A stretch of DNA of 64,000 nt from Chrysomallon squamiferum (lineage: Eukaryota; Animalia; Mollusca): positions 13,640,001 to 13,704,000 of the forward strand of contig CM022665.1 of NCBI GenBank assembly GCA_012295275.1. Reading direction: 5' to 3'. A program made the position numbers and the translations under genes. Of the stretch, positions 4,622 to 55,303 are shown one piece after another (the stretch's first letter is position 1; every line of letters starts with the position of its first letter). Below the pieces are notes generated by a model. The model was not told the origin of the DNA. It did no database searches and saw nothing but the letters and a program-made list of their open reading frames with translations.

Positions 4622-4769
4622 CTCCTAACACACCACACTTAGTGGAAGACAAGTTCACAGCACACAAGCTGGTATTGAAGAATTCACCTGCTCGACTAGA
4701 TTGCTTTTTCATTGGTGCTTCTAGAATAGACTGGTTCTCAAACCATGAGAAGCTATCCAATACATCAAG
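4622..4769 (+). CDS. PTK7: PTK7/off-track exon, first half of Ig domain (about Ig3); upstream exons are outside the window
   Basis: ttttccag acceptor and AG|gtaagt donor; translates PNTPHLVEDKFTAHKLVLKNSPARLDCFFIGASRIDWFSNHEKLSNTS (Ig B-strand Cys, C-strand Trp); phase matches the next exon. Confidence 0.85.
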
Positions 4770-5707: not shown

Positions 5708-5838
5708 GCACATTATCTTTGCCAATGGTTCTCTCTATTTCCCACGGGTGAGATCTGCTGATGAAGGAAGTTACAGGTGCGAAGGTCTCAGTGAGAACAG
5801 CCCTGCCCAGACTTTCACCTCTGAGCTTGAATTAGTCA
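5708..5838 (+). CDS. PTK7: PTK7 exon, second half of Ig domain
   Basis: HIIFANGSLYFPRVRSADEGSYRCEGLSENSPAQTFTSELELV with DxGxYxC motif; ttaacag/gtaagt sites. Confidence 0.9.
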
Positions 5839-7767: not shown

Positions 7768-7800
<33 letters not shown>

Positions 7801-10800
7801 CGCACAATTACCTGTGGTCTTCTATTCAGAAGTAAGAGTATAAATCTTAGGCATAATCGGTCATAGTATCAATCATGATTAGTTTATTAAAATAACATAA
7901 ATATGCTTTTCTGTTTATGGGAAGATATGTATTAAAAGGGTTTTTGTTTGGTAGGAGCAGAGTGGTGTGGGGATGCTGGGCCTTGTTTCTTGTCTTAATT
8001 TCACAAGGAACCAAAATTATATTCAGCATCCAAAATGGTGTTACTAAAAGCATAATTTAACCATGTTAAATTCTTCTCTTTTTTTCATCTGTTATGAATC
8101 ATATTTAAAAGAAAAAAGATTGTCCTACAGTGAAGAAATACCACTAGTGATATTTATAATAGTGTAATTTTGAAAACTATTCCCAAGAAAACATCACTAA
8201 ATAACAATGAGATAACACAGTGACCTGGCATGACATGCTAACTATTAAGATGAGGTCAGTGCAATTTGGTTGGATGTAAATCAATCTCTGGCAGATAACA
8301 ACAAACTTTAATCTTGTCCCTTGTGTACCAAGACCATCAGAATTAAATTAGTACTTGTTCACATACACATCCTATCTTTGATTTTGCTAATATAATACAG
8401 CATGAAAACTACTTTTCCCCATATATTTTTCCCTCTATTGTCACTCTATACCAAGTACCTAAAACAAATATAATAGCTATAAATACAATAAGAATCTTTA
8501 TATATTAAAATGTGGTAGTGAGACAGTGTTTTTGAACAACTCTAAGTAAAGGCTTCATCTAAAATAGTGAAAAATAATTGGCATCGTTGTTGATGAACTA
8601 AATTTAAATACTTATATAATAAATACTGATCCCTTTGTAATTTGAGTGTAGAGTTGTGAAATTTAACATTAGATTGTAATGATTTTAGAGGCTTGTACTC
8701 TTTGCAAAATAACTGAATAATGCAGATACAATATTAAGGTTTGTTTGTTTAATCATTTGAAAATGTTTATGATTCTGATACAAAGGTGTTAAAATCAAAG
8801 GAAGTATTGGCACAATAAATAATTGAAATAATTGGATGGGGCATATATATATATATATATATTGGGATACTTGTTGTTCATCAATTACAATACAGTGTGT
8901 TTTGCTGGAATATCATTAAAATCCTATAAATGTTCTTCTAACATTACCGTGTTTATCCACACTTGTTTCACAGAGAAAAAAAAAATGTGCCAGATATGTA
9001 TAAAAACATGAAGGCTAAAAAACCTAGGGTGTCTTCATTTTCACAAACTAAATAGGTTGTCAGAAAAAACGTGAAGATAGGAAACTCTCAACTTGCAAAC
9101 TGTTTCATGTTTTGAGCCAGACAACCATAAATATCTAGGTTAATTGGAACACCTTTTTTTTCTTCTTTTCTTTTTCTTTTTTTCAAATTCTTAAACTGGG
9201 CAAGTGGATATCTTTTATACCCCGTCAGTTACATTAGAGGTTTCACACTGACAGTGCCTGAAAAACATGTAACTAGAGATTTTATTTTTTTACCTTTATT
9301 TATTCTTTTTTCTTTTTTCTTTGTTACTTTTTTTATTTTTTTTATTATTTTTTTTTTTTTAATAAATAATTGATTTTATTTTACTTACTATTATAAATTA
9401 GTATAAATAGAGCAATTAAATAACATTATTTAAAAATAGAAGTTGGCCTATTGATACTGTAATAATCCAGCTCTGAAAAAAGGAAGTTAGATAACATTTT
9501 GCTTAAAATAAATTTATTTAGCAGTGTTTTGTATCTTATGCTGTTAAATTAGACTGCAGTAGTACTTTACAAAGCAAGATCAGGGTTGGAGTAGCAGCAG
9601 TTCTAGATTGTACTGAAATGAGTTGTTCCAGATGGACAATTAGTGGAATTTTTATCTTTAAATGGAGCTAAATAATGGTATCCTTGTCATTAAAGAAATG
9701 ATTACATGAAAGAAGTGGATATTACTAATGTGATATATATTTTTTTGTACCTACTATGATTGTGTTATTTTTATGGCTTTCACATTTGAAAAAAACAACA
9801 ACAGTTGTACTGAAATTTTGCAGATTGCAACTTTGATCATCATTTTAGAAAAAATAACAGAAAAATGTACAGAAAAGTAATATACTTAATTTTATTTATA
9901 AGAATTTTTAAGTGTACTTGTTCAATTTCTTTTGAATTGCCCATTTAAATTAAAAAATTATAAAACAAACTTAACCTTTCATTATGCAACTTTTATTATT
10001 TGTTTTCACTGAAAATAACAACAGACTAAGGGACTGACAGAATCAGATGGAATATTCATTGGGGATTGAATAATCGCATTCCTTAACTAAAAATCTTTCC
10101 CTTGTTCAAAAACTCATTATAGTTAGTTAATTAAGCTATCTGCTCTGGCAATCTAATTTGCTTGCAGAAAGACAGGTTGGTGTTGTCTTTCTAAGCTGAA
10201 GATGAATATCATTAGCACCTCTGTTTTGTTTTCTGCTTGCTGCTGCTGCTGCTGCTACTGCAATGTCTGGTTATGTAGCTTGTTGATGTACAGCTTCCGG
10301 ATAACTGATCGACAGTGTCTGATTTCACAAGTTTAGCTTTGCTCTCTGACAGGTAGGGATGTTCAAAGCTTGTTCCAGCTCTCGGTGATAAATCTGTGTC
10401 AGATATATCGCAGGAAAACATGGGGTTTTTTCAGTGATTTTTTTTTTTTTTCTGCCTCCGTTGGCGATCAATTTGAATTTTTTACTTTTAATGAAGAAAA
10501 AAACTTTACAGACTATTTTTAGTTTATAATTTTCATTATTTTTTTTCTCTCAGTTTCTTACACATGGCTGCACGATAAAATTCATTAATGTAATAATAAA
10601 AATGTTTAAAAAGAAAAATGATCAGATGTTATTAATTTGCTGCAAAACAATAAGTAACAGATACCAAATATTTAATTTCAACATTACAAACAATTGTGTA
10701 TTGCCTAGCATTTTCAGGTGTTACTTAATAACAGGAAACATGTAATACCTCATATTTATTTTATTTCCCTGAAACCACCATATGTTTCTGCAAATGGTAA

Positions 10801-13800
10801 CAACCTACAGCATATCCTGTGGATATAGTGACACCATGAAAATGCAACTAATGTCTAGGTTAATTTGTTTTTATTAACTTTTTTAAGTCTGCAAATTTAA
10901 ATTGAAAAAAAAAAAAAAAATTCTTGTCTCCATATCTTAATGGTTGAAAGCTGGAAAAACAAACTAATTGAAACTAACTAAAAGAACCAAAAATTGGAAT
11001 AAAATTACTATAAATAATGTACTAAAAATATACATGCTCAACTTACTGAAAAAATGTGTATAACCTGCTAATTTGTTACCATTTCTTTTGGAATTTTAGA
11101 TCCTAATGATCCTTAATGAAAAAAATTACTTTAATGTCAGTAAATATCATAGAATTTGCCCTTGCCAGATAGCAGTAGATATTTTTATGAGACAAAATAA
11201 ATAAAAATAAAATAAAACTTTCTGTTGTATCTATAAAATATTCAAGCACAGCATTAGAAAATACCCAAAACTTTATTTTTCCCCTTGTCATGGTATACAT
11301 ATTTGTTACATTTGTGTGTTTGTGTGTTTGTTTTTTCTGTTTTTCTTTTTTCAGTCATTCCACACATCTCATTGTTGTGCAGATGTATTATCAGATAAAA
11401 ATGAAATCAAATCTAATCTTTTCTAATTCTACATTTCATATCCTTTGCTTTATTTTCACATGAAAAAAAAAAAAAAGAACTCCTGCCCTCTTCTCTCCAT
11501 CAGCTATTCATGTTTTACGACAGGAAAATAATGGGTAAGAAGCAACAAGCTCACAGTAAAACACATGTTTGTAGCTGTAAGATACATCACATCTGGCAGA
11601 ATCCTTCATCACTAACATTACAAGTCTTTGCCATGTAAACATTATTGTACACAAGCATTTATTATCTGCTGTTTGCTTTGACTATTAAGTCAACTTCATG
11701 GTGTGGACATTTAATGTTCCTGCTTTAATTTCTTTTTCATGCTTTCCAAGGTAATGCCAGCTCTATATGTGCCATGTGTGAATTATTGTCAAAAGCTAGT
11801 ATTTTGTTCATCATTTACTGGCTTGGTTTCAATAAATGCCAGTGAGAATTCCTTTAGTTGCATAACATTTTTTTTTTTTTTTTTTTAAATGTTGTTTCTT
11901 GTATTTAATTTAATCTGTTAATTTATTAATTAATTAATTTATTTATCTATTTTTTAATAATCTTGTTTCTTTCATTCATTTAATTTATTAATTTATGTAA
12001 CTTTTTTTTTCAGTAATTTTTTTTCATTATTTTTTTTTTTTTTTTATTTTTATTTTTTTTTTTGTAGAAGGAAAATTAAAGTTAGATTGTGAACTAAGAC
12101 TGGTTTAAATGAAAATAACAAACATAAGATAATATAGTGATTATTTCTTTGAAGTAAAATTACTTTTTTATACAGTAATAGCATATGTCTTTTAAGATTT
12201 TATTTTATATTTTATTATTACTTCCTAATCTTTTTTTTTTTTTTTTTTTTTTTTAGTGCTCTCTCACGCACGCACGCACACACACATTAACCTGATATGT
12301 ATGTAGAGCAGTGCTTTGTTGTAAATATGAAAGGTTTGAAAGAAATAGTTGGCTAGGTCTATTCTCTAGCATTTACAGGAATATGTACATATATCTGTTC
12401 TAGTATTGGAATGTCAGAACTAATACTAACAGGCTGCTACTGTTATGAAATCAGTTACAGACATCTTTAATGTATAAACTCTTCTACATCTGTTTCAAAT
12501 ATAACACTGGATTTAAACATCATTTCAGTTTGTTTTGTTGCATAAATCCTCAGTGTTTCAGAATGAATTGAAAGTTGTGGAACATTCCACAGTTTTTTTC
12601 ATTTGGCCTCTGTGATGTGATATAAATGTTAGATTTGGTTTGTAATGGTTATAGTTATAAGCATATGGGGAAATAAAGTACAAAAGCATACAGGATATAT
12701 ATATATATATATATAATTAATTTTTTTTTAACTTTGATGTTACGCTTCAGTTTATCAGGTTGCTGAATTTAAAATGTTTGTATCTTTTGGTGGATATTCT
12801 CGATTTTGTTATTCATTATGTGTTTGATTGAACAGTTTCTTACTTTGTTTTTATTATTATTTTTTTATTATTTTTGTTTTATTTACTTTTTTTATTTTTT
12901 TTTATTTTTATTTTTTTTTTTTATTTTATTTTGTTGTTACAGTCAGTGAACAGAATTTTCTTTAATTTTTTTATTTTATTTTTTATTTTGCATATGAAAA
13001 AATCTAGCAAAGAGTTCTATGCATTATTTAAATTTATTTGTAAATCCATTTATCACTTCTGACAGAAGATATTTTTTTTATAAATTCATTTGTCAATCTT
13101 GGCACATCATTCTCTTCACTTGAGTGCATTTCTTGTTTTTTTTCATTCCATGGAAAGTAAAGAATTATCCAAGATCATTCCAGTTTGATTACGTGTCATC
13201 TTGCCAATTCATTACTTGTTTACATGATGGACAACTCTGGTTTTTACTTTCCACAAAACATTTACAGATCAATGGATCTCTAATGCCTGCATCACATGCT
13301 AGCGTTAGTAATACAAATTACAGATGGTTGTCGAAGCATGGGTTTAATTGGAAAGCTATCCGTCAAAACAAATGAAATTTTCATTTTCTGACTTACTTGA
13401 CCCAAAATGTTGGTGCTATCACTGGTTGATATTGATTCTCTTGATTGCTGCTTAGGCCTGATAACCTTCACTGACAGTTTGGCAAGTTTTAAAAGGAACT
13501 TGACTTGATAGAAGCTTTTTAATCATATTACTTTTAATCCTGCACTGATAGTGAGTAACATAGATGTAGTGAAGATTGTCAAGTCCAGAGAAGAATTGTC
13601 TTCTTACCCAGTGGAATTTCTGTATAAAAAAAATACTATTTGTTTGTGATTTGTTGGCGCCTTGCTTCATGTTCAATGTTTCTTTCACAACATTCCGTAG
13701 CATATGAAAGGAGAATTTGTTTTATTACCAGTACTGTTAACTCATTTTACAATCTACATTTATTTCCTTAACATAAAGGCATCTGGGCATTTAATTATTT

Positions 13801-14510
13801 TTTTTTGTTTTTGTTTTTATTTATTTATTACTTCTTTTTTTTAGGTTTTTGTTGGGGTTTTTCCCATTTTTACTAGTATAGTATGGAGATAAAGGTGTTG
13901 TATTTCTCTGTGAAAGATCATAAATTAATGTGTAACAGTAATGAAAATCTAAATTCAAACCATGAAACATTTGTACTTTGTTCTAAAAAGCATCAACCTA
14001 TTCAGAGGTATTTCGGATACTACTTTTATGTAGTAAGAAATAATTTCTTGGCGAAAATATGTTCTAACAAACTTTTTGCTTATAAATTGTTAAATTACTA
14101 TATGGATCCATGTACCCTTAAACAAATGTGCTTTTCTGTTCACTGAATTTCCCTGATATTCAGGATGTATTTAAATATATTGTATGATATTCAGATGTTC
14201 TTAATATATTTTATTTCTTACTTTTTTTTCAGGAACAAAATTATAAAGTTATTGATTTATATCTGAATTACTATACCTCCTAATAAGTTATTTTTCATTT
14301 GGATTTATAAAAATTATAATTAGAACAGGCTATAGCATCTGTATGAAGACACTCTGTATGCACATATTTGATTCAGTTATTAGTCATGCAACCATAAAAG
14401 AAACAACAAATTATCCCTAATTGAATTGCAAAAACATGTTCACCAGGCTCTTGGGAATTACAAGTTTGCTGACACACTAAATTATAATACACAGTTTACT
14501 TACTTATTTA

Positions 14511-14547
<37 letters not shown>

Positions 14548-17055
14548 TAAAATTTAAAAACAAATTGGTTTTACATTGAAAGTCTTTAGTGTTAAATGAT
14601 CTGACCTGTTGAATAGTAAGTTATTTAATGTTTCGTGTATATTATACATTCAGATATTATTATTTTAGATTAATACTTTGTATGAATATCTAGAAAGTTG
14701 AAAATTATTTATTCAGGTCATCTGAAAGAATTGAGATAAACAAAATTATGTAGCTAGAATTATTTTACTCTATTTCATCAGAATAAAATATGAAAGTACT
14801 TTTCATTTGATTCTTTCAATGTTGATAAATTTAACGCAAACAAAATCAAACATAACAGAATTACTAGGTTCTTCCAAATTGCATGTGAACACCACATTTG
14901 TAATGCGCAGCTATTTATTACAGGTTACTGATTGAAGTTTTGAATGATTAACTATATTTGTTTTTTGCTGACCGGTTTTCTAATCAAATGGAGAAATGCA
15001 ACAATATTTCACAGCATCCTGTTTTTGAAATAAGTGATGTTGCGGCTGACAAATCCTATAACTAATTACTATCAATCTTGACCAGTTAATTAGGTTTATT
15101 TGAAAGGCGTAATACTTATCAAGGGATTTGTGTTGTATTACTGATGATGACAAAAACATTGTATAATTTGATAACCGACTAAATATAATGACCTGTAATA
15201 CAGACTGATAGTAAATAGTGTTAATTGTGGTACTGATTATATGTTCAAAACTTGTCACTTCAATTTATTTTTCATTTTATGTGTGTATATAATGTAACAA
15301 TTAATACCCCCCCACACAAAAAAATAATAAAAACATTAATACCAAACCAAAAAACTACTGTATGAGTATGTGTATGTAAATGTGAGTGAGCAAGAGAAAT
15401 AATGAATATTATTGTTATTTTTGACTGGAAGCTATCCATCCACCTGTTCATTATAGTATGGACATCTTTGCATTACAGATTTTCTTATGCAGCTGGAGTT
15501 TAAATGTTTTTACACATACCACTGTGTTTGTATTTCGGTTTCTAAACACCGTCACCTGTTCAGGGAAGACTTGTTTAGAAATGCCTTTTTAATAGATCTT
15601 GGTACATGGAGAATGGTATTTGGTACTGATATTTGATACTGCATTTATTTCAAGAAATAAATTATAATAATGACCATCACAGAATTAGAATATTTTAATA
15701 GTGGTTATTTGATGTCAAACTTGTTGTTGTTGTTGGAATGGAACATTTCACAGTATGTATGCCGATTCATATGCTGGATTTTGTCATTTTGTTTGAATTA
15801 TTATTATAAGCAGTAAGTTCATTTGGCTTTCTGAGGTCCCCACAACTGATCACATTAAGTTGTGAAAAACAACTCAACATTATTGTTACATTAAGTAACA
15901 TTAATTTTAATTGCTTTGGATGAGAGAAAAGAATAATTCAAACAGCACATGAACATTTACATGCACACACACAAATACAACCAAATTTAAAAGGTTTTTT
16001 TTTTAAATATATATTTTCTGTGTGCATACAAACATAATTAGCTGGTTATGCAAAGTAGTTACATGGATGCCAAAAGGGGTGTTCTTCCTTATGAATTTTA
16101 ATTCTTTTGAGGGACAGGAAGAACTTGAACAAAGATTTGTTACATGCATACAAATTATTAGTTATGCAGAGTTACATGTGCAAAAAGTGGTAGTGTTCTA
16201 AATTAATATTATATAAATAAAGAATTTTTATAAACAGGTTTGCAGCTCAGTTCATTTTAAAGAATAAATCATATAAAAAAAAAAAATGTGCACATCATAT
16301 TAATGTAATTTACATTTTTATGCATGGCATCTGCTTATCATCTGCATATGTCACATTTTTTTTAAAATAATAAAAGAAATCCTTAGAATTTAAAATTGGG
16401 TTTGAATGCATAGCATTTTTGACTTTTTAAGATAACCTGACTGGAAATAGCTGTCTTTCTTTTTTTTGCCCTTCTTCTCATTCCTATGCACACATGAGAA
16501 TGGCACTTTATGTTGTTTTTTGAGAAAAAAATGCTACAATTGATCTGTAGAACGCAGCTCAAGTATTTTGATCAGGAAATACATAAATAAACACTTTGGG
16601 AGACCTCCTATGAAAATGCCTGCAACATGTAGTCAACGGTTTTTCAGACTTGAGGTAATTTCTCACACCTGTCTATGGAGTGAGAACAGCATTTTTGAGA
16701 ATGTTTGTTAAAGTTTAGCACCCAGGTCTTCAGCTGAATCAAGATCACCTGTCAACCTCATGCTAGCAGAAGGGATCTTTTAAAAATCAAAAAATCAAAA
16801 TGCCTATATAATAGCAATCTCTTTCTCTGACTCTGTCTCTGTCTCTCTCACACTATAAATAAAAACCTTGATTTAAAGCAAACTGTAAGATGACTTTGTT
16901 ATTTTGTCAGTTGCTTGAAGCAAAGGTTAAAGCTTTTAAAATGTTTAAATCTTTCATTTATTTATTATTTTATTTATTTCCAAAATAATTAAAATGGAAA
17001 AAGAAAAGCCTTTAAATAACTTTTGATTTGAATACATATTTCTTACTAACTTCAG

Positions 17056-17185
17056 GTTTAGAAGACATAACAGCAGACACATTTGAGCCCAGACTAAGAC
17101 TGAACTTTCCTATTGTTCTACCTGTGAATGAACCTTTTGAAATAAAGGTTTTTCCTCCCAAGGGAAACCCGAAACCATCATTCAG
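17056..17185 (+). CDS. PTK7: PTK7 exon, first half of Ig4
   Basis: LEDITADTFEPRLRLNFPIVLPVNEPFEIKVFPPKGNPKPSF, resembling human PTK7 CLPPKGLPEP; ctaac branch-like motif, ttcag/gtaagt sites. Confidence 0.88.
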
Positions 17186-20100
17186 GTAAGTTATTGATTA
17201 ATTAATCACTCAATTTTTCTTCATTGGTTTATTAAATAACATTTAATGACTTACAATCTTTATGTCTGATAATTATTTTGGCATTTTGATACCAGTTTCT
17301 GTTAAAATTGAAAATCCAAAGTTAAATAAATGTATCTTTAATCATTACACCAAACTTAGCACAGTCTTACTTGCATTCCCAAGTTCCAATATTGTCCAGG
17401 CTGCATTTACCCATATAAATTCAAAGCAGAAAAGCACAACAAATATAGAAGAGCCTAGTAAGTTAAGACTAAAAGGATAATCAACACACTGTTTCTATCT
17501 AAGAAGTTGAACGATCAGTAAAAACATATTAGGTTATTTTTAATGTTTTATCATTTTATATTCTTATTGAGCTAGTTCTTCTTTTAATATCATTGATGTA
17601 GATTTCTTAAATTAGAACCACATGCATAGTTAGAAAGGTTGGGGATACAAGTCTTAAACTAATTCACATTAACATTGAATGTACCTTGACTGTATTCCCA
17701 TAACAAATGTTGTTTTTTGTTATTTTTTACTACAGTATTCTAAGTTAATAAAACGTTATACTACCTATAGCCATCTTTCTACCAGTATCTTGACAATTGT
17801 TTTTTTTTTTACAATTTATCAATTTGTTTGTCTTGGTTTTGGACAATAAAAATTATGATATGATCCCAGATGTGAAATTATTTTCCTGAACCTGCATTAT
17901 GTTAGTGTATTAGAAGATTAGTGTGCAAAGTTAATGCTTTACTCTTTTTTGTTAGCTCTTGATAGGCACCAAAACTATGAGAAATTCCCTTCATCTATCA
18001 TCCATAAGGGTAATGGCTTAACAGCAAGGCCAGTTGTTGTTTTTTTTCTCCTATCATTTATCATGGTAATAAATATGGGATACAGATTTTAACTTGGTTT
18101 TCCTACATATGTCTGTACTTTATAATTGGTATCTTAGTCTGGTGTGATAAACATGCAACATTTCTACCACATTCCAACAAAAAATACCTAAATATCTCTT
18201 TGATGTCACATCTGGTTTGCTTTTCATTTTGATGATGTATTGCAGATTATGTTATCCATAAGACATTTTAATGTTTATAATAATTTTCGTTGGTTTCACA
18301 GCACAATAAACAGTCAATAGTGTCATTAAGTTGTAATGAATATAATAAATTTCTTAATTTCATATGAAAATGTGACTGTCTTGAACTTTTTTTTATTTAA
18401 CATTAAACTATGTCTTCAAGTTTACAGAATTTTATTACTTTTATTTAGTTTTATTTTATTTCATTTTTTATTTTATTTTAATATTATTTTCGTACTTTTT
18501 TTTTAATGTAAAATTCTTACATTTCAGTAACATTTTAAAGTTATTTTAATGATTATAATAATCTTGCTTTTTTCTTTTAGAAATTAAAAAAATAATAATA
18601 ACATAAATAAAAAATATTCGTGGTAAAGATTTTTTTCTTTTTATTACATTAAGATAAACTTCCACGGTTCTATGTCAGATATGACTGAAAATCATTAAGA
18701 CAGTTTAAAAAAAACCCACCATCAGTCTGACATGGTGTTTTCATATTACCTGATGACTGAATTATCAGTGTTAGAAACCACATGTTGATGAGCTAGCTTT
18801 CAGCTACTTATACATAATCAAACACAACTGTATTGATATAAACTGTGGTCCTGATACCATAAGCTGGAAATAGGAAACTGATCCACATAACCTTTGTAAA
18901 TATTTGTTTCCTTGCATAGCAAAAAACAGAACTTATTTATCATCATACATCTGTTTTCATAGTCATGCTGTGAAGTAGTATGGATTCTAGTAATTGGCCT
19001 GGCAGTGTGTAAAACTTGTACCTCATTCTGTGTGGGCCACCATGTACTAACGTGTGTTAATGTGATAACATTCAAAGTTTAAAAATAAACAAAAAATAAA
19101 CAACAAGAATGATGAGTCTGAATGTATTTAAAGACATTCATCAGATCCAGAAAAAAAGAAAAAAGAAATGTAATCAATTTCTACTCATGTTTTCATCTGT
19201 TTTCTTTATTTTACCTTTTTGTTTGTTTTCTTTTTCTTCTTCTTTCTTTTTTTTTTTTTTTCTTCTTGTTTTTTCTGTTTTTGATGTTCTGATGTTGCTT
19301 GAACTCCAAGATTATTAATTGCTTTCATGTAAATAGTCCAACTGAACAGATAAAATTTTAGAACATAACATTTATATTCTTTAATTTTAATTTTTATATA
19401 TATAGGGGTTTTTTTCTATTCACTATTAAAATATTAATTATTTTTTTAAGCTGGAGCAAATACCGTTTCACTTTTAAAACACATCATTTACTAAAAAAAA
19501 TGTTATTCAATATTTAATAAATTTTAATTCTTGTTCATGTGTGTGGCTAATTTAGCAAATTCTATATGTGCTTTCCTGTCATGGGAAAGTGCACATAAAG
19601 GTTCCTAAGGGCGTAAGAGCAATCCACTATATGTAAAATCTTTTACATTTGTATTATTATTACATATTCACTTAATTAAAAGCTAAAAACACCCCTATTA
19701 TTATCAAAGGGTGGAGGTATTTTACCCTAACTATTCAAAGAAAAATGAAAAAAAAAATGTGTGTGTTGTGTATATATATATATTTATGATCATCTTTGCA
19801 TTAGTAATGGAACCCTTGCCAAAGTGGGAAATAGCCCATAAGAAGGATTTCACATAACGTCCACTCCATCTCACACAAGTTCTTCATTAATGAATTTAAA
19901 CCTGGCCTAGATAGCTAAATAGGTGACACATATCCTACAGTGACTATTTCTTTGGTAACTAATGAGTGTGTTGATGAGACCAGACTAACTGCTTGTGTTT
20001 CATTGCCAAATGTTCCACAAGGAAACTAAATGCCTTCGTGTATTTGGCACCTTATTTCAGTAACAACATTAATAAATTTTAACGACTGGCTCACACACCT

Positions 20101-21318
20101 CACCAGAATAAGATAGTTAACATATTTCAAATGTAATTTGAACACCTGATATTCTCAGTGAGCTTCTAAAAATTTAAAACACTGTTTCTGGTTCCATGCC
20201 ATATACAGTCTGCAAATTTTAAATCTTGATAAGATTTTAAATGATTATGTTCTTTAATAAGTATGTGCATCAGTGTAATACATGGATGATTTTTCTTTCT
20301 TTCTTTCTTTTTTTCTAGAGAAGAAGTTTCATTAAATACATTTTCTCATTATATTGCAGTTTCCGGTTGTAATATATTTTCATGTTATAATTCTTATCTA
20401 CAGCTAGTGTTATTCAGAACCCATATCTGATTTTTTTTATCTCCTTTGTTTTGTCACAAAAATAAAATTGTTGATACACCATGATATTTGAAGAATCTGA
20501 AGCAACAGCATCTTAAATTACAGAGTGGGGAGTTGTTGTTTATGACATGCTCAAATCCAAATTGTTCCTTGTCAGTCTCTTCATGTAAAATTCCACATAT
20601 ACAAGACAAGCAAAGGCACCACACATGTTTGAGAAAGCCAGGCTGAAGTACCATAGGGAGTAATTATTGGATGCTGTCTGCACACCATATTACTGGATCT
20701 ATTTTAGCTAAGGGAGCCATTCTTTTCTGGATGCTCTTGTCACATTTTATCAGTGCAAATGACTTGTCTTCATTCTATGTGTAGGCAGAGGTATTGTTTC
20801 CTCGACTTTGCAAGATAGGTGATTCCAAAAGCCTTGTATCAAAGGCAAAAAAATAAATGAGCTTACACCTAAAATATGTAGAACAGTTGGTTTGTTTCCA
20901 AAATGTACAAAATTCTTATATTTTGGTTTTTTTAAATTATTTTCTTTATGGGTTTTTCTCACAATAAAATATTGTCATAAAAAAAAAAAAAAAAAAAAGA
21001 AAGCAAAGAAAAGTAAAAATCTAAAGTGTTGTCTGCAGCCAGGATATCTTCATTTATTTTGTTACTGAAATTTTAATTGGTAAAATACATTTTTTGTTTT
21101 TGTTTTTATGATCCAACTAAAAGGTCAGGTTACCTGCAGTCAAGATTTCTTCAATTCTGGGGTTTTTAAATTTTAATTGGTAATGAAATAAAAGATTTAT
21201 TGGCTTTGTTTAATAATACACCAGATGTTATATATTTAAAAAACATTTCATCTGTATTTTTTTCCTTTTATTTATTTACAGATAATGATAGCTTTCTAAA
21301 TTCCCATCAGAATAAAAA

Positions 21319-22090
21319 TACAGTGGTTATAACTCAATTTGCTCGTATATCAAATCAATTTTCTGAATGAAATTAATTAAAATACCATTAATCTGTTCCA
21401 ACCCCCCAAAATCCACCCCAATTTTTTGTAACGTGTTTTTAAATAAGAAAAATGTATGTATAAATGACAAATTGTGTACAAAAATAAAATAAAAGATAAT
21501 TTAAAGAAATAAATTGGTTTTGTAAAGTGTACATGGTTAGGGTTTCTCCATCTTTTCATGGACAGAGAGGTCTGCAGCTTAGAAATTATTTTCATGCCTT
21601 TGGCTGGAGTTACGGTCTGTATCGACTCTTGCTTCAGTATGGTACATATTGTAAAAGTACTATGCTCGTACTGCCTAGCCATGTTGACTACAAACATACC
21701 TCACTCATGTTTTTCTATGAATTCATGCTTTATTTCAATGGACAACATCTGCTTCCTCTTCTCAGTGCTGTCCTTTGCACTCATTTTCTTAGGATCCATG
21801 GAAATATGACAAAATACTGCACAAAACATGAGCACAACACAACAGATGCTTCCACAGTTAGATTACCACATGCAGCAAATGATTGAGATGCAGGATGCTG
21901 GGCAGATGTTATGTTGTTCATTGCACCAGCTAGCAGTGTATCTGAAGCTTGCTTGTAACTCAAATTTTGGCTCGCAACTGAAAGCAAAAAATTTAAATTG
22001 TTCAAATGATATATAAACTGTGTTGGTGCATGCAAAAATGATGGATAAGATACATAGCATGTTTTGATGCTACAAAGTAATAGTTTCACT
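21319..22090 (-). mobile_element. Degenerate Tigger/pogo (TIGD1-like) DNA transposon, internally deleted, in a PTK7 intron
   Basis: From ATG 21799 on the - strand: MDPKKMSAKDSTEKRKQMLSIEIKHEFIEKHE*GMFVVNMARQYEHSTFTICTILKQESIQTVTPAKG, a CENP-B/psq-type HTH N-terminus; TA-CAGTGG end at about 21317; other boundary approximate. Confidence 0.75.
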
Positions 22091-22722
22091 CAAACGAAAT
22101 ATATCCATTTTGATATTTCTTTATTATTCTTCACCTTAAAATCTATAAATTCTGAAATATTATATAATATGCAATATCCATTTTCAGCTTTCCTTCTTTT
22201 ACTTCTGTAAGTCTTGCTGGTTATTTGGACAGAAAATATTTCCTATAGTAAAATTGTGGTTCTTTGGTTGGTTATTAAAATGCCATTCAATTTTGATGCT
22301 AATTTTTCTGCAAATGGGGTGGTCAGTTATGTAATAACTCAGTGTTGCATATCTACAAAACTAAATAAGATAATTCAAATCTTTTTTTTTTTTTCTTCTG
22401 TTTTGTTCATCTTTTTCTCTTCGTTTAGCTGAACAATAAGTTTGTCAAATGCATCCATGATTTTCCCATGCACCATCATAATAAAGTTTTAACAAATAAT
22501 AATAATGAAATGGATACAGATGTCCAGATAAGAAATACAAACCAAAACGATAAGACTAAGATAGAAAATAGTAAAATATTATAGAGCTGTGTTTCACAAT
22601 AGATTTTGCATTTTAGAAACAGTAAAGAAAAAAGAAAAGGATGCATTCACAACAGAAATGATGAATGGTAGACTAGCTGTACAGAACAGTGCAGTAAACA
22701 TAAAAGTATTACTATATTTCAG

Positions 22723-22889
22723 ATGGCTGGACAGAAATGACATGCTGATAGGTGACACAGGTGGAATACATGTGCAGGACAATCGTCTGCTGTTTGAAAA
22801 CCCACAAGAGATAAACTCTGGCAATTACACATTTATTGTAAATAACACTGCAGGAGAAAAAAGACAAAAAGTTTGGATCACTGTTTCAG
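22723..22889 (+). CDS. PTK7: PTK7 exon, second half of Ig4
   Basis: WLDRNDMLIGDTGGIHVQDNRLLFENPQEINSGNYTFIVNNTAGEKRQKVWITVS; tttcag/gtattt sites; lies within ORF 22589-22993. Confidence 0.9.
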
Positions 22890-23154
22890 GTATTTCAATC
22901 TATAAAAATGCATTGGCACATTTTATTTATTTTTATTTTTTATATTTTTTATTATTTATTTACTTTTCTTTTATAACTGTAATATCAGTTTAATAATAAT
23001 CAATCTTAATTTGATTGTACTAAAAATTATGACATGGTTTGAGAAGTGTTTTTACTTGGGAGTTTATTTTCTTTGTTATTATTATCATTACTAATGTAAA
23101 TTTAAAAATAGAATAATAAAAATTATAACCTTTACTTATTTTCATTTGTTACAG

Positions 23155-23294
23155 TTCCACCATTTATTAGTAGAGCACCACAGCCCAAAGAAGTGGAAGA
23201 AGGAGAGAAGGTTGAGTTTAGTTGTCAGGTTGATGGTACACATTATCCAGTCACAACAATCATCTGGCTAAAAGACAACAATTTTATTCACATT
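23155..23294 (+). CDS. PTK7: PTK7 exon, first half of Ig5
   Basis: PPFISRAPQPKEVEEGEKVEFSCQVDGTHYPVTTIIWLKDNNFIHI; ttacag/gtaagt sites. Confidence 0.9.
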
Positions 23295-23925
23295 GTAAGT
23301 CTGTGAAAATATATCATCTTTTCTCATTGATTATGATAGTTTGAACAAATAACCAAAATAAATTTTGTATACTTCCCAAATGATCATTTTGTTAATAGAT
23401 AAGTAATGGCAATTTTTATAACAATTTGATTTCTAAGCCTTTGGTAATGCATAGTGTTAATTTATCTCCCCACCACCAGTATCATTTCTTACATAGAAAA
23501 GAAAATAATAATAAGGAGAAGAATAACAGAAAAGAATAAATAAGTTATAGTCTGGGGATTCAGAGTTTGCATAGTTTTTCTTTGACATGCTACAAATAGT
23601 ATCTCAGTCTGCTGCACTATTATCTGATATCTGTTTCAAATATATAACTGATCTGGATTGAAAAGAACACTGTCGTCTTTGTAAATAGCAGTTTCATCAT
23701 TGTGAAAATTACCATGCATATGTGTAGCTTAATATAGTATGCATGTAGGCTTTTACACATGGCTCAAGGGAACATTATGTAATTGAACATGTCAAATAAG
23801 TAATGTTTTTGTCACTTTGTATTTGGTTGTTGATAGCTGTGCCAGATATTTGTTAATGATTAATTATGTAATTAAGGAAGCTCTGTCAGAGAAAATTTAT
23901 CAATCTTGTTTTGAATGTGTTACAG

Positions 23926-24073
23926 GGGTCATCTCGACATAGGATGAATTTGGCAACTGGAGTGTTACATATAGAACCAGTGGAGCTGAGTGATGCTGGT
24001 GAATATGCTTGTGTTGCCAATACCACGGGCCATCCCATGGTGGACTCCAGTCGAGCCTATTTAAGAGTGAAAA
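23926..24073 (+). CDS. PTK7: PTK7 exon, second half of Ig5
   Basis: GSSRHRMNLATGVLHIEPVELSDAGEYACVANTTGHPMVDSSRAYLRVK (DAGEYAC motif); weak gtacat donor fixed by phase. Confidence 0.88.
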
Positions 24074-24240
24074 GTACATATCATTTAGTCTTTATTTATT
24101 TTTAATTTATTTCAATAATATTTCTACAGTCATATAATTAAATGTACATAATCCCTTCAAAAACCAGCAAAAAAACCCCATTATTATCTTCTTTTTTTTC
24201 TTCCAGTTTCCTTTCTTTCATAGCTATTTATTTTATTTTA

Positions 24241-24247
24241 CACACAC

Positions 24248-24298
<51 letters not shown>
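24241..24298. repeat. (CA)n microsatellite
   Basis: Direct reading. Confidence 0.95.
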
Positions 24299-24302
<4 letters not shown>

Positions 24303-24389
24303 AACAACTCGGTCATAAACATTTATTTATATATAATACTTTGTGTGTGATATTAATCATTACTTTTTATACTATGCTATTAACCCTAG

Positions 24390-24656
24390 GAAAGCTCAAG
24401 TTCAACCCATTACCACAGGATGCATTTTTAGAACTGAACTTGCATGGCAAGGTGGAGTGTCATGCTGAGGCAGACACCCGACCAGTGATCACCTGGATCA
24501 AACATGGGAAAAACCTTGACAGCCTTGAACACGTGTACCAGGAGAGAGGCATGTTGCTTTTTCAGAAAGTCAGGCGCAGTGATGAGGGCTACTACTCTTG
24601 TATAGCATCATTACGACAGCGTTACATCAATTCTACCATCTTTATCAAGATAATTG
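24390..24656 (+). CDS. PTK7: PTK7 exon, Ig6
   Basis: KLKFNPLPQDAFLELNLHGKVECHAEA...WIK...DEGYYSCIAS; KLKF.P.P start as in vertebrate PTK7 Ig6; cctag/gtgagt sites. Confidence 0.92.
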
Positions 24657-24934
24657 GTGAGTGTTTCTACACAGGTTAAATACATAAGTATTTATATATA
24701 TGCATACATGTTTCTCATTTAGAAGCCTTAATAATGTATGAAATATTTTCCTTACAAGAAATGAAATTCATGAAAAAATATGAACTAAACTAATTTATTA
24801 AATATTTTATAACAGTTTACCCTTAAATATCTATTTTTTTAAACAAAAAAAAGAAAAAAAATTTGGCTGTGAAAAGTGTTACTTTTAAAGTATTTCTCTT
24901 TATTTATTAATTTTATGATTTACTTTTTAAAAAG

Positions 24935-25086
24935 AGGGTCCACGTTTTGCTATAAGACCAGAGAACACGACAGCATTTGAAGGACATGCTGTTATGCTTC
25001 ATTGTGTAACATCAGGTGTACCTAAACCTACAGTATCCTGGCACCGAAACAGACAGGCAGTGCCATCCACTTTACCTCGATACAAG
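24935..25086 (+). CDS. PTK7: PTK7 exon, first half of Ig7
   Basis: GPRFAIRPENTTAFEGHAVMLHCVTSGVPKPTVSWHRNRQAVPSTLPRYK; donor gtattt. Confidence 0.9.
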
Positions 25087-25231
25087 GTATTTTATTACCT
25101 ATTTTACTTGGTGTATGTTTTAATCATCTTTTTAGTTGTTTTCAGTTAATACATAAACAAAATGTTAATTTCATTTTTAATGCATAGGTATTCTTACAAT
25201 TAAATTTTTGTTAGAATAGTTTGAAACTGTT

Positions 25232-25373
<142 letters not shown>

Positions 25374-25677
25374 TTTAATGGATTTGAAATTTGAAATTGT
25401 TCTCAGATTTTACCCAGTTTAAGTAAAATGAATAGTTTGAACTGTTTCATAAAATACTTAGGTGATCTAAGGTGCAGGTGATATAATACTATTTTTTTAC
25501 TTAAATGCTTATCATTTTGTATATATAATTTTAAAATTTAATAAATATTAAAGAAAAGCTAACGTTTTCTTTATTAATGGTTTATGATATGAATATTGAT
25601 TTTGATTAAACGTAAATTATCCATTTATTTATTTATTTATTTATTTTTATAATTATTATTTTTACCTGTAATTGTAG

Positions 25678-25798
25678 GTTTTTGAGAATGGCACACTACT
25701 CATCACTAAAGTGTTTATGGAAGATAAAGGCTTGTATGGTTGTTTAGCTAACAACACTGCTGGTCAGATACAAGCAGAGATCTATCTTCGAATTACAG
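25678..25798 (+). CDS. PTK7: PTK7 exon, second half of Ig7
   Basis: VFENGTLLITKVFMEDKGLYGCLANNTAGQIQAEIYLRIT; tgtag/gtacag sites. Confidence 0.9.
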
Positions 25799-25986
25799 GT
25801 ACAGTTTTTTAAAGAATTATTATTAGAGTATTTAAATGTGTTGATGTTAAACATTCATTCAGATTATTTTCATTATAGTTGAGGCAGGCTGTGGCTTGTA
25901 TAACATGAAATGTTAGGTTTTTATTTTTCAATTGTCTACTGGGTTTGATCTATAGCACACTAATTGTCATGATGTTGTCTTACTAG

Positions 25987-26133
25987 ATGCTCTTGATGAT
26001 AATGAAAGTTTTGACATGATGAAGACTATAATCATTGCTGTATGTTGTGCTGGGGCTTACCTTGCTCTTGTCATTGGTCTTACTGCTTTCTGTAGCTACA
26101 AAAGACTGTCTCGGAGAAAGAGAAATGGATTAA
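25987..26133 (+). CDS. PTK7: PTK7 exon, transmembrane helix
   Basis: FDMMKTIIIAVCCAGAYLALVIGLTAFCSYKRLSRRKRNGL: hydrophobic span followed by a basic stop-transfer segment. Confidence 0.92.
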
Positions 26134-26580
26134 GTAAGTAGTTATATCAGACAAAATTCTTATTATTATTGATTTTCATTTACTCTTAACAAATGTTTAC
26201 ATGAATGTTTTAAGAATCTTGAATAAAATGTTTAATATTTAACTGCTAAGATTCATTTCTCTTTATGGATAAATATAACAGGCAGTAATCAAATTAATTT
26301 TTTTCAAAATTACTAATCATTTTTAATAAAGTCAGTAGTGTTCTTTATAAAGTGTCTAATTATTTTGAATATTTAAAGAATAATGAAAGTAACAAGTAGA
26401 TATAATAATTAAATGCTTGATGTCAGCATATTACAGGTAATGATATTTGCACATTTATGCATAAAATCTGAATATATTGTTTCTCCTTCTTTTATTTAAA
26501 GAAATATTTTCAACATAAATTTAGTGAAGAATGATCAGTACCTTAAGTAAATGTGTAAATTTTAACTGATAAACTTTCAG

Positions 26581-26811
26581 TGTCGATTCCATTAAAAACA
26601 GAAAATGGAAGTGTCAACCGGGAACAGCATGAACTTCTTATGAAAGATCGTGAGTCAGGCACTCAGTTTCGAAGTGACAGTGACAACAGATCTCATGCAT
26701 CTGGACTCAGTTCACACCAGTCATCACAGTCCCAGAATTCCCGTAGTCGCAGGAGCAGTTTTGACCGATTCCAGTTTCCCAGACAGGATCTACACACACT
26801 GGCAATAATAG
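26581..26811 (+). CDS. PTK7: PTK7 exon, juxtamembrane region
   Basis: SIPLKTENGSVN...RSRRSSFDRFQFPRQDLHTLAII, with the D.+.FPR motif that precedes the PTK7 kinase domain. Confidence 0.9.
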
Positions 26812-27156
26812 GTAGTTTTCATACACATCAAAAATTCTAGAAAGAGTACTTTATATTATTGTTACTTTCACAAATTATATTTACAATCTTGTTTAATCCA
26901 GTTTTTTTTGTTTTTAAATGAAAAACCATATATGTAGAAGATGAAATTTTTTTTTATTTTTTTTATTTTCAACCTCATTGAATAATTCTAGGAAAGTTGT
27001 TGCTTCATTGAAGAGTGAGTTAAAAATGTTCATCACTTTCATTTTTAAATATTTATCATACCCATTGCGTCTCATCATTTTTCTTTTCTTTGAGGATTTG
27101 CTCAAATGTTAATTTGAACTGTTACTGAGTAATAATTGATATATTTACTATTTCAG

Positions 27157-27389
27157 GTAAATGTCAGTATGGAGATGTGTTTTTAGCTAAAGCAAGAGGT
27201 ATTCGTCCCACTGAGCTTGAAACTTTGGTGGTTGTTAAATCTTTACTTTCAAAAGATGAGAATATATTCTTCAATTTCCGACAAGAAATGGAAATGTACA
27301 GCAAGCTTGACCATGTGAACATCGTTCGATTGCTGGGCATGTGTCGAGAGATGGAGCCACAGTTTCTAATAACTGAATACTGTGACTGG
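27157..27389 (+). CDS. PTK7: PTK7 exon, pseudokinase N-lobe
   Basis: GKCQYGDVFLAKARGIRPTELETLVVVKSLLSKDE...FRQEMEMYSKLDHVNIVRLLGMCREMEPQFLITEYCDW, closely matching human GEVFLAKA...LVLVKSL. Confidence 0.95.
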
Positions 27390-28991
27390 GTGAGTAAAAG
27401 CCAGTGAGATGACAGATAATTGTTGTTTTTTTGTTTTTTTGTTTTTTTAAATAACAGAAAAATGAATAGTCAAAAAAGAAGTAAAAGTTCAAATTGATAT
27501 TATTTTTAATATTTAAACTGTTCTTCAGTGGTAATTTGAATTCTAAATTTTTAATTATTACTGTACTAATGAAATCTTTTTTTTTTTTCTTTTTTTTAAC
27601 ACTACAGTTCTCATCACTGAATTTTGGTTTATTAAAAATAGAAAATAAACTAGATTAATTTCTGTAAAATTTCAGTAGAGATATTTTGGTTCATGCCTGA
27701 GTCATGACAGATTAACAGGTTAATTAATATAATGAAGTCATTATTAACAATCTCCCAAACACAGTCTTATTCACCTCACCAGAGAAGCTGGTTAACATCA
27801 TAAAAAAATACAATCTGTTAACTTCTGTTTTGCATCATATATTCATAAACATGACAGCTTCATTTTGTAATCTAAAAACCCACTATTACACATATTTGAT
27901 AATATATGGCTCCTTTTTTTTTTCTCTCTCTCTTCTTTTTTTTTTTTCTCTTATTCATATTAACTGAAAAGGCTGGACCAGTTTTCCATTTTCTGCCTGA
28001 TACACCAGTTCATTAACCAGGGTTATCTCCCTTCCTTTATCTATGACCCATCAGAGCTTTTACAGATAATCATGTTGTTATTGTAAACATTTTCTTACAT
28101 CATAAGTTTTTATAAATTCAACACCAACCCATGGTGTACACTGTACTTTTAGCAGAATAGATGAATTAGTTTTCTATGTATTATCATCACTTTGTTTGAA
28201 GAAGGCTATTTGATTCAAGACAAAATATTGTACTTTATTTTTTTATTTATATACTTTGAGATTATTTCTCCAAAAATAAGTAGATATATGATCTTTCTGA
28301 TAAACTTGTGGTATCAAGGAAACTTCTGTTACATGCAGATGTCCTGTGTATGGTTAGGAGATACAGGGAGATAGTTCTGTAATTGCCCTTCATTAGGAAC
28401 AACTCACTGCACAGTTCATTACCAAGCTATCTACTGTAATACAAGATGATGGTGTCACTGAGTAATTGTACTCATTTCACCAGCTTGGGTCAGATTAATA
28501 GGCTAATCTATAGTGATAGTATTTTGTACTTTTTGTCATTTTATATTTATTGCTTTAATGTATCCATGATATTTTATTTTTCCCCCATCATTATTTAATT
28601 GAAACATTTACACCACTAATTAGATCTGTTTATGATTTTTATACAGATTTCCATGCATTAGTTCATTTTACTGGCTTGGAAAAATACGCTGTTATTGTAC
28701 AAATATCTGTACATAAATTAAAATTTATTTAGTTTGAAATTCTGTATGATAATAGTTTCTTTTCAGCATTTGTTTACTAGATTTATTATACATATTTTTT
28801 CATTCTTAAATATTAAATGTAGTCATTAAAAATATTTTTGATATTTTATTTAAATCAATTTTTTTTTTTTCAGATTTAAAAAATATTTCATACATTTCTT
28901 ATTTACATTTCTTATTATAACCATTTGTGGTATTTTTAATCCTTTTGCTGTTATTTTACTATAACAATACTGATTTTGTTTCCATCAACAG

Positions 28992-29570
28992 GGTGATGTG
29001 AAGCAGTTTTTGTTGGCCACACGTGGTGACAATGGTCAAAGAATTGCCCGAGTACCTGCACTGACTACAGGTCAGAAGGTGCGAATGTGTCACCAAGTTT
29101 CTCTGGGGATGGAACACATGTCCATGAATCGATTCGTGCATCGTGATATCGCAGCCAGAAATATTCTCTTGACATCACGTCTTGATCTTAAAATTTCAAG
29201 TCTATCACTAAGCATGGATGTGTATGCCAGCGAGTACTATCCCCACAATGGCAACCTCATACCACTGCGCTGGCTTCCACCAGAGGCACTGCATGACAAC
29301 TACTCCAGCAAATCGGATGTGTGGTCATATGGAGTATATGTGTGGGAGGTCTTCCATTTAGCAGACCTTCCTTTGAGATTGAAGAGTGATGAAGAGGTTC
29401 TCAAAGAGCTGAAGGCTGGTGAGGTTTCTTTAGATTGTTCCGAGCAGTGTCCATATGAAATAGTAGACTTGATACGTCGGTGTACCACTGAGCTTCCACA
29501 GGATCGACCTTCATTCAGTGACATTGTCATGTCATTGAGAATGCTCCATGACTCCATGCCTACTTTCTGA
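28992..29570 (+). CDS. PTK7: PTK7 last coding exon, pseudokinase C-lobe
   Basis: GDVKQFL...RFVHRDIAARNILL...LKISSLSLSMDVY...IPLRWLPPEA...SKSDVWSYG...RPSFSDI; DFG motif absent; TGA at 29568-29570. Confidence 0.96.
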   Translation, partial: GDVKQFLLATRGDNGQRIARVPALTTGQKVRMCHQVSLGMEHMSMNRFVHRDIAARNILLTSRLDLKISSLSLSMDVYASEYYPHNGNLIPLRWLPPEALHDNYSSKSDVWSYGVYVWEVFHLADLPLRLKSDEEVLKELKAGEVSLDCSEQCPYEIVDLIRRCTTELPQDRPSFSDIVMSLRMLHDSMPTF

Positions 29571-29672
29571 CTAGGCCCAGCAACAGCCACAACAGCAGCA
29601 TCATATGATGGCAGCTATGCTCAGATGCAGGAGCTATCATCTCCATCTGGTGCTGTCAGAGACCTAGTCTAA
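29571..29672 (+). other. Candidate stop-codon readthrough extension of PTK7 (33 codons after TGA-CTAG)
   Basis: TGA CTA G context; open in-frame LGPATATTAASYDGSYAQMQELSSPSGAVRDLV, then TAA TGA; GC content stays coding-like until the second stop. Confidence 0.65.
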
Positions 29673-30563
29673 TGAAGACAAATAATGTTATCTGTGATTC
29701 ATATCAGCTGTTTTGAGTTTTTAAAACTGAAGTTTTCATGTGGCCTTTCAAAGCCTAATAAGTCATGGAACAATGTTTGTGGGCAATCTCTTTTTGATAA
29801 AACAAGTGTTGACATCAAGGCCACAATGCAGATGAATACATTTCAATATGTAAGACATTTTCAGTGTTGTGGGTCAGTGTATTTTATACATTTTGTGTGA
29901 TGTTAAATAATTTTGGAATTTTTTTTAATGTACATTTCTCTATCACACTATGAAGCCATGCCTTGTTTTCATTATTTGTTTTAAAATTATTTTTTATTTC
30001 TCTGCCCCTATATGGAGGTAATTTATTGTCATTCTTAACAGAACAATTAGTAATGTATTTTAAAGACACTAGACATTCAATCAGTAGTGCTTTTTTTTTT
30101 TGAAATATGATGACTTGCATATATACATATATACATAAATTCATATATTAATACACAAATACACAAGCACATGTACATCTACAAACATGTGCATACAGAA
30201 CTCAAAACATATACATGTATGCTAATACATAAACACATACCTTGTAGTGTTTTTTTTTTCTTTTTGTGAATATATAAATTGAAATTTTATAGTTCTTCTA
30301 AGAAGAAGAAAATAAAAAGTGTGTTTTATATGGATTTTTAAGTATGATTTTTATATAATAACTGAAATCCACTTGCTCTGTACATAAGACTTTTGAAAAA
30401 AAAAGTGGGTGTTTTTATAAAAATGTTAATTTTATCTAACGTTTTGATTATTGCCCAGTATTTATTGTCTGCATACAATGTATGTGATGAGCAAGTATCA
30501 CGGTGTGCCGTGAGATGGTTCTGGGTTGGTGTACACTGCATATTTGCTTTGTATTGTCATTAA

Positions 30564-30800
30564 ATCATGTTTACCTAAAATGAATACATTCTAAACCCGA
30601 GCTAGATTCAATATGTCATTAGAATTGTTTTCTGATCATGTTTACTTAAAATTGATGTGTTCTAAATCAGGATTTGCTTGGTACTCTTTGTGCTGTTATT
30701 AGCAGTTTTCTGATCATGTTTACTTAAAATTAATATATTCCAGACCTAAACCTTTACTGATCATGTTATCTTACATTAATAAACTAGTATTCAAAAGCAG
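30564..30800. repeat. Degenerate tandem repeat, about 4 units with core TGATCATGTTTACTTAAAAT, in the presumed PTK7 3'UTR
   Basis: Core recurs at about 30565, 30633, 30711 and 30758. Confidence 0.6.
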
Positions 30801-31148
30801 GATTTAATTTATAAATAGTATTTTGAAATGTAATTGTTTTAATCAAACATGTTTTCTTAAGAGTATTACAAATTTTATTTTTTAGAACATGACTGGATTT
30901 TTTCTGTATTTTGGATTTTTTTTTTTTTTTTTAATATTTTGTTCTTCCATTATTTATTATTATTATTATTATTATTAAATTTTAATAACCATCGTGATCA
31001 TGTTTTCATCATGTATATAATTAAAAACTATTTAAAGACAAAATTACTTTTTAATGTAAATTATAATCAGATGTTTTCCATGAAAATATTTTTTTCACAC
31101 ATGCAATATCCATTTCTGTCTAATATCTGTTGACAATCACCAAAGTAA

Positions 31149-31180
<32 letters not shown>

Positions 31181-32049: not shown

Positions 32050-32087
32050 TATCGTTATTATTATTTATTAATTTATTTACTTACATT

Positions 32088-32118
<31 letters not shown>

Positions 32119-36626: not shown

Positions 36627-36664
36627 CTGTAATATAATATGAATAAATAAATAAATAGACAGAT

Positions 36665-36742
<78 letters not shown>
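36665..36742. repeat. (AG)n microsatellite
   Basis: Direct reading. Confidence 0.95.
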
Positions 36743-36747
<5 letters not shown>

Positions 36748-55241: not shown

Positions 55242-55303
55242 GTAAATATTCATTTGATGATAATCAGTATTTTAAATTCTGTACTTAAGTAAAATGTTTC
55301 AAT

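Follow-up and report, generated by a model that had tools for sequence, protein, structure and literature searches.

A candidate lineage-restricted stop-codon readthrough at the UGA-CUAGGC context of a PTK7 orthologue in the snail Chrysomallon squamiferum

The closest described systems are a small group of animal genes in which the UGA stop codon is followed by CUAG; they are summarized here from the available parts of the cited sources. CUAG is conserved after UGA in OPRL1, OPRK1, AQP4, and MAPK10, and OPRL1 also conserves the next two bases, GC (PMC4132726); Ross River virus and Getah virus have the same UGA_CUAGGC context (PMC4132726). According to mutagenesis, the first four 3' bases weigh most and the others act modestly (PMC4132726), and a comparison across genes found that only the interval from -3 to +4 acts alike and put the number of validated human readthrough genes at about 14 (bioRxiv 10.64898/2026.07.14.738498). 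Twenty-three human genes carry UGA_CUAG, four of them with a positive PhyloCSF score, in addition to MDH1 and LDHB, which have a targeting signal (PMC5868278). All 17 newly tested human UGA_CUAG contexts leak at 1.3-6.7%, and DDX58, which also reads TTC-TGA-CTAG, is named among the efficient readthrough contexts (PMC5868278). These human counts imply that the motif alone gives a prior for function of about one in four. In animals, programmed readthrough is known mainly from vertebrates and insects. On a broader scale, abundant readthrough was confined to Pancrustacea among 52 species (PMC5100048).

In the present work, we analyzed a stretch of 64,000 nucleotides of the C. squamiferum genome, hereafter the window, in which a PTK7 orthologue ends in this type of context. 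The features of the locus, in window coordinates, are as follows.

4570..29570, plus strand: 3' part of a PTK7 orthologue with 13 matched exons (Ig domains, transmembrane segment, pseudokinase domain), located by tblastn of Gigantopelta aegis and Haliotis PTK7
28992..29567, plus strand: last coding exon, 192 codons, encoding the pseudokinase C-lobe (PF07714, E 1.4e-46) and ending ...LHDSMPTF
29568..29570, plus strand: first stop TGA, present in the sequence and identical in RNA contigs of 4/4 RNA runs
29571-29574, plus strand: CTAG, adjoining the TGA
29571..29576, plus strand: 3' context CTAGGC (UGA_CUAGGC), as in OPRL1, Ross River virus, and Getah virus (PMC4132726)
29571..29669, plus strand: in-frame extension of 33 codons, LGPATATTAASYDGSYAQMQELSSPSGAVRDLV, GC 0.525, A/S/T/G/P-rich, with the end R-D-L-V
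29595..29656, plus strand: predicted hairpin within the extension, -25.5 kcal/mol, of doubtful role (z -1.36, not significant)
29670..29675, plus strand: double second stop TAA TGA, with a GC change-point nearby (29669, or 29664 in two shorter intervals)
29676..30802, plus strand: AT-rich 3' UTR, GC 0.28, covered by RNA contigs in pieces up to 30802

The identification of the host gene as PTK7 in the preliminary description is corroborated by tblastn, the best named matches, and the phylogenetic tree, which all agree, and the Ig-transmembrane-pseudokinase architecture is present. The start coordinate of 4570 is approximate, and the first ~195 residues are unmatched in the window. The best protein matches of the last exon are named inactive tyrosine-protein kinase 7, with 89% identity to G. 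aegis PTK7 and 73% to Haliotis asinina. On the tree, the snail PTK7 forms a clade with G. aegis and the ENA protein P0169 (100/97), and Haliotis is its sister (98/97); this tree has 24 rows and no usable root, as two outgroups were badly trimmed, and only its supported clades were used. The last exon keeps HRD and has SLS at what is presumably the DFG position, which fits a pseudokinase. The window also contains a multi-exon gene at 54443-62269 on the plus strand with a weak DUF3504 match (PF12012, E 9.5e-7, just under the cut-off), a domain that we take to be typical of Crypton-derived tyrosine-recombinase-like genes of the ZMYM/QRICH1 kind; this gene ends TGA TTGC, followed by a 6-codon open frame. 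On the minus strand, GC-richer ORF-like segments at 36355-37945, which have no Pfam match, are probably exons of a further gene.

The stop arrangement reads from the sequence as it had been described, coordinates included: the PTK7 frame ends TTC-TGA-CTAGGC and continues through 33 sense codons to TAA TGA. The nine bases TGA-CTAGGC are the same as in human OPRL1. The pattern TGACTAGGC occurs once in the 64-kb window versus 0.07 expected, and 7/100 shuffles have at least one copy, an estimate for a pattern that was picked after being seen. CTAG makes up 0.16-0.27% of 4-mers in the window, and the sole other TGACTAG lies at 41627 on the minus strand, with no linked gene end identified. AATAAA signals in the 3' UTR are found at 30311, 30778, and more beyond. 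RNA structure as a stimulator is not supported here: folding of intervals that start at the stop gives z values of -0.03 to 0.95, and 29575-29669 gives 0.00, none of them significant, and no unusually stable structure is seen just 3' of the stop. The hairpin listed above begins 25 nt downstream of the stop, and its z of -1.36 refers to an interval chosen post hoc. A 7-bp perfect inverted repeat (29569-29575 / 29663-29669) could pair the stop context with the extension end; it was likewise found post hoc (p about 0.016) and was given no weight.

Coding-like GC content up to the second stop, followed by an AT-rich UTR, was the second part of the initial observation, and it is reproduced: the extension has a GC of 0.525 and the last-exon CDS one of 0.462, and the value falls to 0.313 over the following 99 nt. 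A single fitted GC change-point falls at 29669, the final base before the second stop, for both 28992-30800 and 29300-30100, and at 29664 in two shorter intervals beginning at the first stop. Its posterior is 0.62-0.73 within about 15 nt of the second stop and at most 0.0005 near the first stop, the latter in the two intervals that include CDS. We compared this position with control loci, namely 38 distinct loci with enough downstream DNA, which come from other animals of other base composition; only one of these (L002) has a change-point within 6 nt of its second stop. Among the 16 controls with strong contrast, 13 change-points lie within 35 nt of the first stop and three at 97-160 nt downstream. 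In the window's other gene, which ends at 62269, the change-point precedes the stop by 21 nt. Because stops are AT-rich, they tend to come after a GC drop anyway. The control L002 is itself a PTK7 (match at 1501-2049), which ends VDSDV and then has TGA and a 13-codon open frame, WRSPGSPGPPPSK, in a context other than CTAG; its change-point is 36 nt past the stop, beside the second stop at 39 nt.

To assess the reading frame of the extension, we scored all three frames with position-specific Markov models, for which 15 coding segments of the window served as training data. Of the three, the PTK7 frame scores best; against shuffles, p is 0.014, 0.002, and 0.034 for Markov orders 0, 1, and 2, respectively. 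At the same orders, the extension ranks at percentiles 72, 69, and 33 among 39 coding windows withheld from training, and its score is reached by 1/78, 0/78, and 10/78 non-coding windows. GC by codon position is 21/20/11 of 33 (0.64/0.61/0.33), and the low third position has p = 0.006, a signal residing mostly in the first 14 codons, which form a low-complexity triplet run. In codon usage, the extension outscores each of 21,489 overlapping intron windows but does not surpass sequences made by shuffling its bases (p = 0.30), and the score therefore reflects GC content; one training segment of this score began in an intron and was excluded from the change-point and Markov tests. The change-point, frame, and third-position tests are mutually non-independent. 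The open frame as such is unremarkable, since 33 codons stay open in 12.5% of intron windows of 99 nt and in 24% of extension-base shuffles. The +1 frame, at 29575-29667, reads AQQQPQQQHHMM... for 30 open codons to a TAG near the same GC boundary. Tandem Repeats Finder reports no array at score 30, and Rfam has no family at gathering score in 29400-32500. What goes beyond chance in the extension is the position of the change-point together with the reading-frame preference.

The main rival to functional readthrough is a leaky but neutral stop, in which TGA-CTAG stands by chance before a GC-rich, triplet-repetitive proximal 3' UTR, about 1-3% of ribosomes read through, and the resulting tail has no selected function; the GC-rich stretch itself may then act as a regulatory element of the UTR. 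Among human UGA_CUAG genes, this type forms the majority (PMC5868278, in its available part), and at a CTAG frequency of 0.16-0.27% some genes per genome would carry the motif by chance. The open-frame probability of 0.24 given composition, the codon score (p = 0.30), and the GC-rich proximal UTRs of 3/16 strong-contrast controls agree with neutrality as well. The neutral stop fits poorly, however, with a change-point on the second stop, as in 1/38 controls, and with a frame preference at p 0.002-0.03; it also leaves aside that the context match extends to CTAGGC, that the extension ends D-L-V, and that no tandem array reaches Tandem Repeats Finder score 30. We regard a leaky neutral stop as a possible, although rather unlikely, account of the locus.

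The comparison with relatives bears both on the age of the first stop and on the distribution of the motif. The first stop aligns with the end of G. aegis PTK7 (XP_041351987.1 locus), where both isoforms finish in DSMPAF, and with the ends of P0169 and P0170 (DSVPSF); identity to the two relatives is 84-89%, and four Haliotis species end DSSF, three residues earlier than the snail PTK7. This alignment indicates that the stop is old and that a recent nonsense mutation is unlikely. Far from the snail, TGA-CTAG is found at the PTK7-like stops of 0/53 distant loci in a metagenome scan, including the bivalve-like L001, which has TGA TAG. The underlying alignment scan gave 80 loci, none with identity above 65%, of which 26 had no exon end and one ran off its contig, leaving 53 stops; these loci are redundant, mostly non-molluscan by likeness, with one clearly mollusc-like, and some are perhaps other kinases. 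A wider stop pattern is matched by 0/83 loci. A single-protein metagenome scan gave no relative among 99 pattern matches, and the prokaryote and viral collections contain one and two distant kinase-like loci, respectively. A genome labelled as a Dehalococcoidia MAG has a PTK7-like match (40%) on a 540-kb contig (L081:1501-2325), which is possibly an animal contig that was mis-binned. Proteins carrying the extension were sought by HMMER, which returned seven matches; the sole relative among them, G. aegis PTK7, ends at the first stop, and P0165 and P0168, which match beyond query residue 35, were set aside as unrelated repeat proteins. Two further sequence searches likewise yielded no extension-bearing protein, with matches of 1/57 (P0169, without the extension) and 0/2. 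With 0/53 distant loci carrying the motif, it is not an animal-wide PTK7 feature, a distribution that also favours the neutral stop; readthrough, if real, would be lineage-restricted.

An aligned and old first stop likewise weighs on the idea that the extension is a fossil tail, i.e., that PTK7 once had a longer C-terminus, a nonsense change made the TGA, and the 33 codons behind it are decaying. A fossil would account equally well for a coding-like base composition, a preferred PTK7 frame, and a terminal Val, and several bivalve PTK7s have S/P/T/A-rich tails of 28-49 residues past the RPxF motif. However, the end is the same in two relatives and near-identical in Haliotis, so the stop is old, and unselected sequence after an old stop should have drifted toward the intron GC of 0.27. 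In nine comparisons, the extension shows no significant likeness to bivalve PTK7 tails (best p = 0.077), and a fossil leaves CTAGGC unexplained; we consider this origin improbable. The long S/P/T/Y-rich tails of the bivalve PTK7s P0010, P0012, P0005, and L001, which have no intervening stop, resemble the snail extension in composition and are not alignable to it.

Transcript evidence comes from the five sequencing runs that contain the stretch, four of which are RNA runs, all from one study and of low depth; it consists of assembled contigs, which lose rare forms and are silent on translation. The spliced joint 27389 -> 28992, leading into the last exon, is present in RNA contigs of X2 and X3. 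The TGA is found in RNA contigs of all four RNA runs with no differing letter, gap, or joint, hence with no sign of splicing or editing across the stop in these contigs, and one X2 contig (29295-30070) covers the whole extension with 0 differences; thus, the TGA is not an assembly error, and as contigs run through the TGA and the extension, the major mRNA has both in one piece. The fifth run, X5, has no cover over the PTK7 last exon. The RNA contigs of X1, X3, and X4 stop at 29588-29591, just 5' of the predicted hairpin, and X1 resumes at 29664; X2 bridges this contig gap (29591-29663), and a gap in low-depth contigs of one study proves nothing.

The same contigs bear on alternative splicing, for which CTAG|G at 29574/29575 would be a 3' splice site. 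Joining it to an internal phase-1 donor at 29071 or 29419 would bring in the extension in the PTK7 frame, whereas use of the intron donor after 27389 would lead into the +1 frame (AQQQPQQQHH..., 30 codons). TAG|G fits the acceptor consensus, and a splice site would explain CTAG; donor-like sites of compatible phase are present, and the +1 frame is open to 29664. However, the site scores -6.0 versus 7.6 to 11.9 for 9/10 real acceptors and falls within the range spanned by 37 exonic decoy AGs (-16.8 to -0.4); these scores are from a crude model built on PTK7's own acceptors, the tenth of which was entered one base off and scores -2.0. Both products would cut into the kinase fold, and no such joint exists in the contigs of the four RNA runs, where the check for a splice bypass of the TGA proposed in the preliminary description revealed none. 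Splicing is thus a very improbable source of the extension. Recoding of the UGA as selenocysteine or an error of assembly, either of which would give an in-frame UGA before an open frame, is hardly credible at all, given that no SECIS reaches Rfam gathering score in 29400-32500, two close orthologues end at the same position, Cys stands there in 0/36 orthologues, and the TGA is read in RNA contigs of four runs.

The C-terminal end of the predicted readthrough product is of interest with respect to PDZ-domain ligands, whose class patterns include S/T-x-hydrophobic and D/E-x-V. Among 36 PTK7 orthologue ends, six are S/T-x-hydrophobic, ten are D/E-x-V, eight have another V, and twelve have none; D/E-x-V ends occur in 10/11 caenogastropod and heterobranch orthologues (one assigned by likeness). 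The major form of the snail PTK7 ends P-T-F, and the readthrough form would end D-L-V, a D-x-V likeness that, as with the CTAGGC match, was noticed post hoc. Judging from its A/S/T/G/P richness, the tail is probably disordered. It contains YAQM, which presumably fits the YxxM and Yxx-hydrophobic motifs and is weak on its own. In the simplest functional reading, readthrough would give a PDZ-ligand-like end back to a minority of receptors, the tail serving as a flexible linker whose working part would be the last residues, D-L-V; this is the most speculative step. We offer as a tentative and unlikely, though specific, scenario that the main isoform lost an ancestral Val-ending PDZ-ligand-like C-terminus and that UGA-CUAGGC readthrough restores D-L-V on a minor isoform, with termination setting the share of receptors available for PDZ docking. 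The literature matches listed give no sign, in titles and abstracts, that PTK7 uses a PDZ-binding end.

Functional readthrough of the snail PTK7 would work as follows. Provided that the response of snail ribosomes to CUAG resembles that in mammals, where human reporters give 1.3-17%, a few percent of ribosomes likely decode the UGA as an amino acid and continue to the double stop. Trp, Cys, or Arg is inserted at a read-through UGA, and presumably this would hold for the snail PTK7 as well. The product, a minor isoform of PTK7, would carry 34 further residues as a cytoplasmic tail, likely kept by selection; that the tail is under selection is what we infer from the extension. Some leakage is very likely whatever the function, on the analogy of the human reporters, because the context leaks in mammals, provided that snail termination resembles mammalian termination. 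Lineage-restricted functional readthrough of the snail PTK7 is, on balance, somewhat probable. Established at this locus are the sequence and its presence in RNA, the lack of a visible splice bypass, a coding-like composition that ends at the second stop, and an aligned first stop. The interpretation of the locus as programmed readthrough is supported as to stop context, coding-like composition, gene identity, and splice bypass, and is weakened by the absence of the motif in 53 distant loci; the words "switched" for the readthrough and "signalling" for the tail are hypothetical labels.

The statement that no readthrough of PTK7 or off-track is known agrees with the titles and abstracts searched, few of them from subscription journals, in which no such report was found. 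The matches listed (titles and abstracts, with thin coverage of subscription journals) include no case of readthrough of a mollusc nuclear gene. In the searched supplement of PMC5100048, which includes the controls hdc and kel, the gene symbol otk does not occur; nor was it found in the searched part of the PMC13278127 supplement, where the control kel is found. The main text of PMC5100048 has no mollusc term, and Table S1 of PMC5868278, which lists 18 genes, does not include PTK7. If true, the snail PTK7 would be a mollusc case of programmed UGA-CUAG readthrough, none having been found in the literature searched; if selected, it would mean that UGA-CUAG is exploited in a third major animal branch, beyond vertebrates and insects, and would justify a mollusc-wide genome scan. 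In that event, a Wnt/planar-polarity co-receptor that recovers its lost C-terminal docking motif through readthrough would illustrate clearly how such isoforms originate.

Compared with known systems, again from the available parts of the sources, the snail PTK7 has the same UGA and CUAG as OPRL1, OPRK1, AQP4, and MAPK10 (PMC4132726; bioRxiv 10.64898/2026.07.14.738498). The extensions of vertebrate UGA_CUAG genes are short, as here (13 codons in MAPK10, about 28 in AQP4), three of the four genes encode membrane proteins, as PTK7 does, and they need no 3' RNA structure, none being significant in the snail PTK7 either. However, the four genes are conserved across vertebrates and reporter-validated, whereas the snail PTK7 is a gastropod candidate known from sequence and RNA contigs, and the deep conservation of the motif seen across vertebrates has no counterpart in it (0/53 distant loci). 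VDR, DDX58, and CDH23 (PMC5868278) have the same motif and are leaky without coding-type conservation; DDX58 shares the TTC before the stop, and VDR is lineage-restricted, like the snail PTK7. A difference from these three genes is that the snail extension bears coding-like signatures, detected within one genome, as far as the second stop. The readthrough genes of Drosophila and Anopheles (PMC5100048; PMC13278127) are also from invertebrates and have a coding-like second ORF, and our three-frame composition test is similar in spirit to the Z-curve test of the insect work. Finally, the gene shares with the PTK7/off-track pseudokinase receptors the same Ig ectodomain, transmembrane segment, and pseudokinase domain. 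Among these receptors, 24/36 orthologues end directly in a PDZ-ligand-like hydrophobic residue, whereas the snail lineage ends P-x-F and is predicted to regain a Val end via readthrough only.
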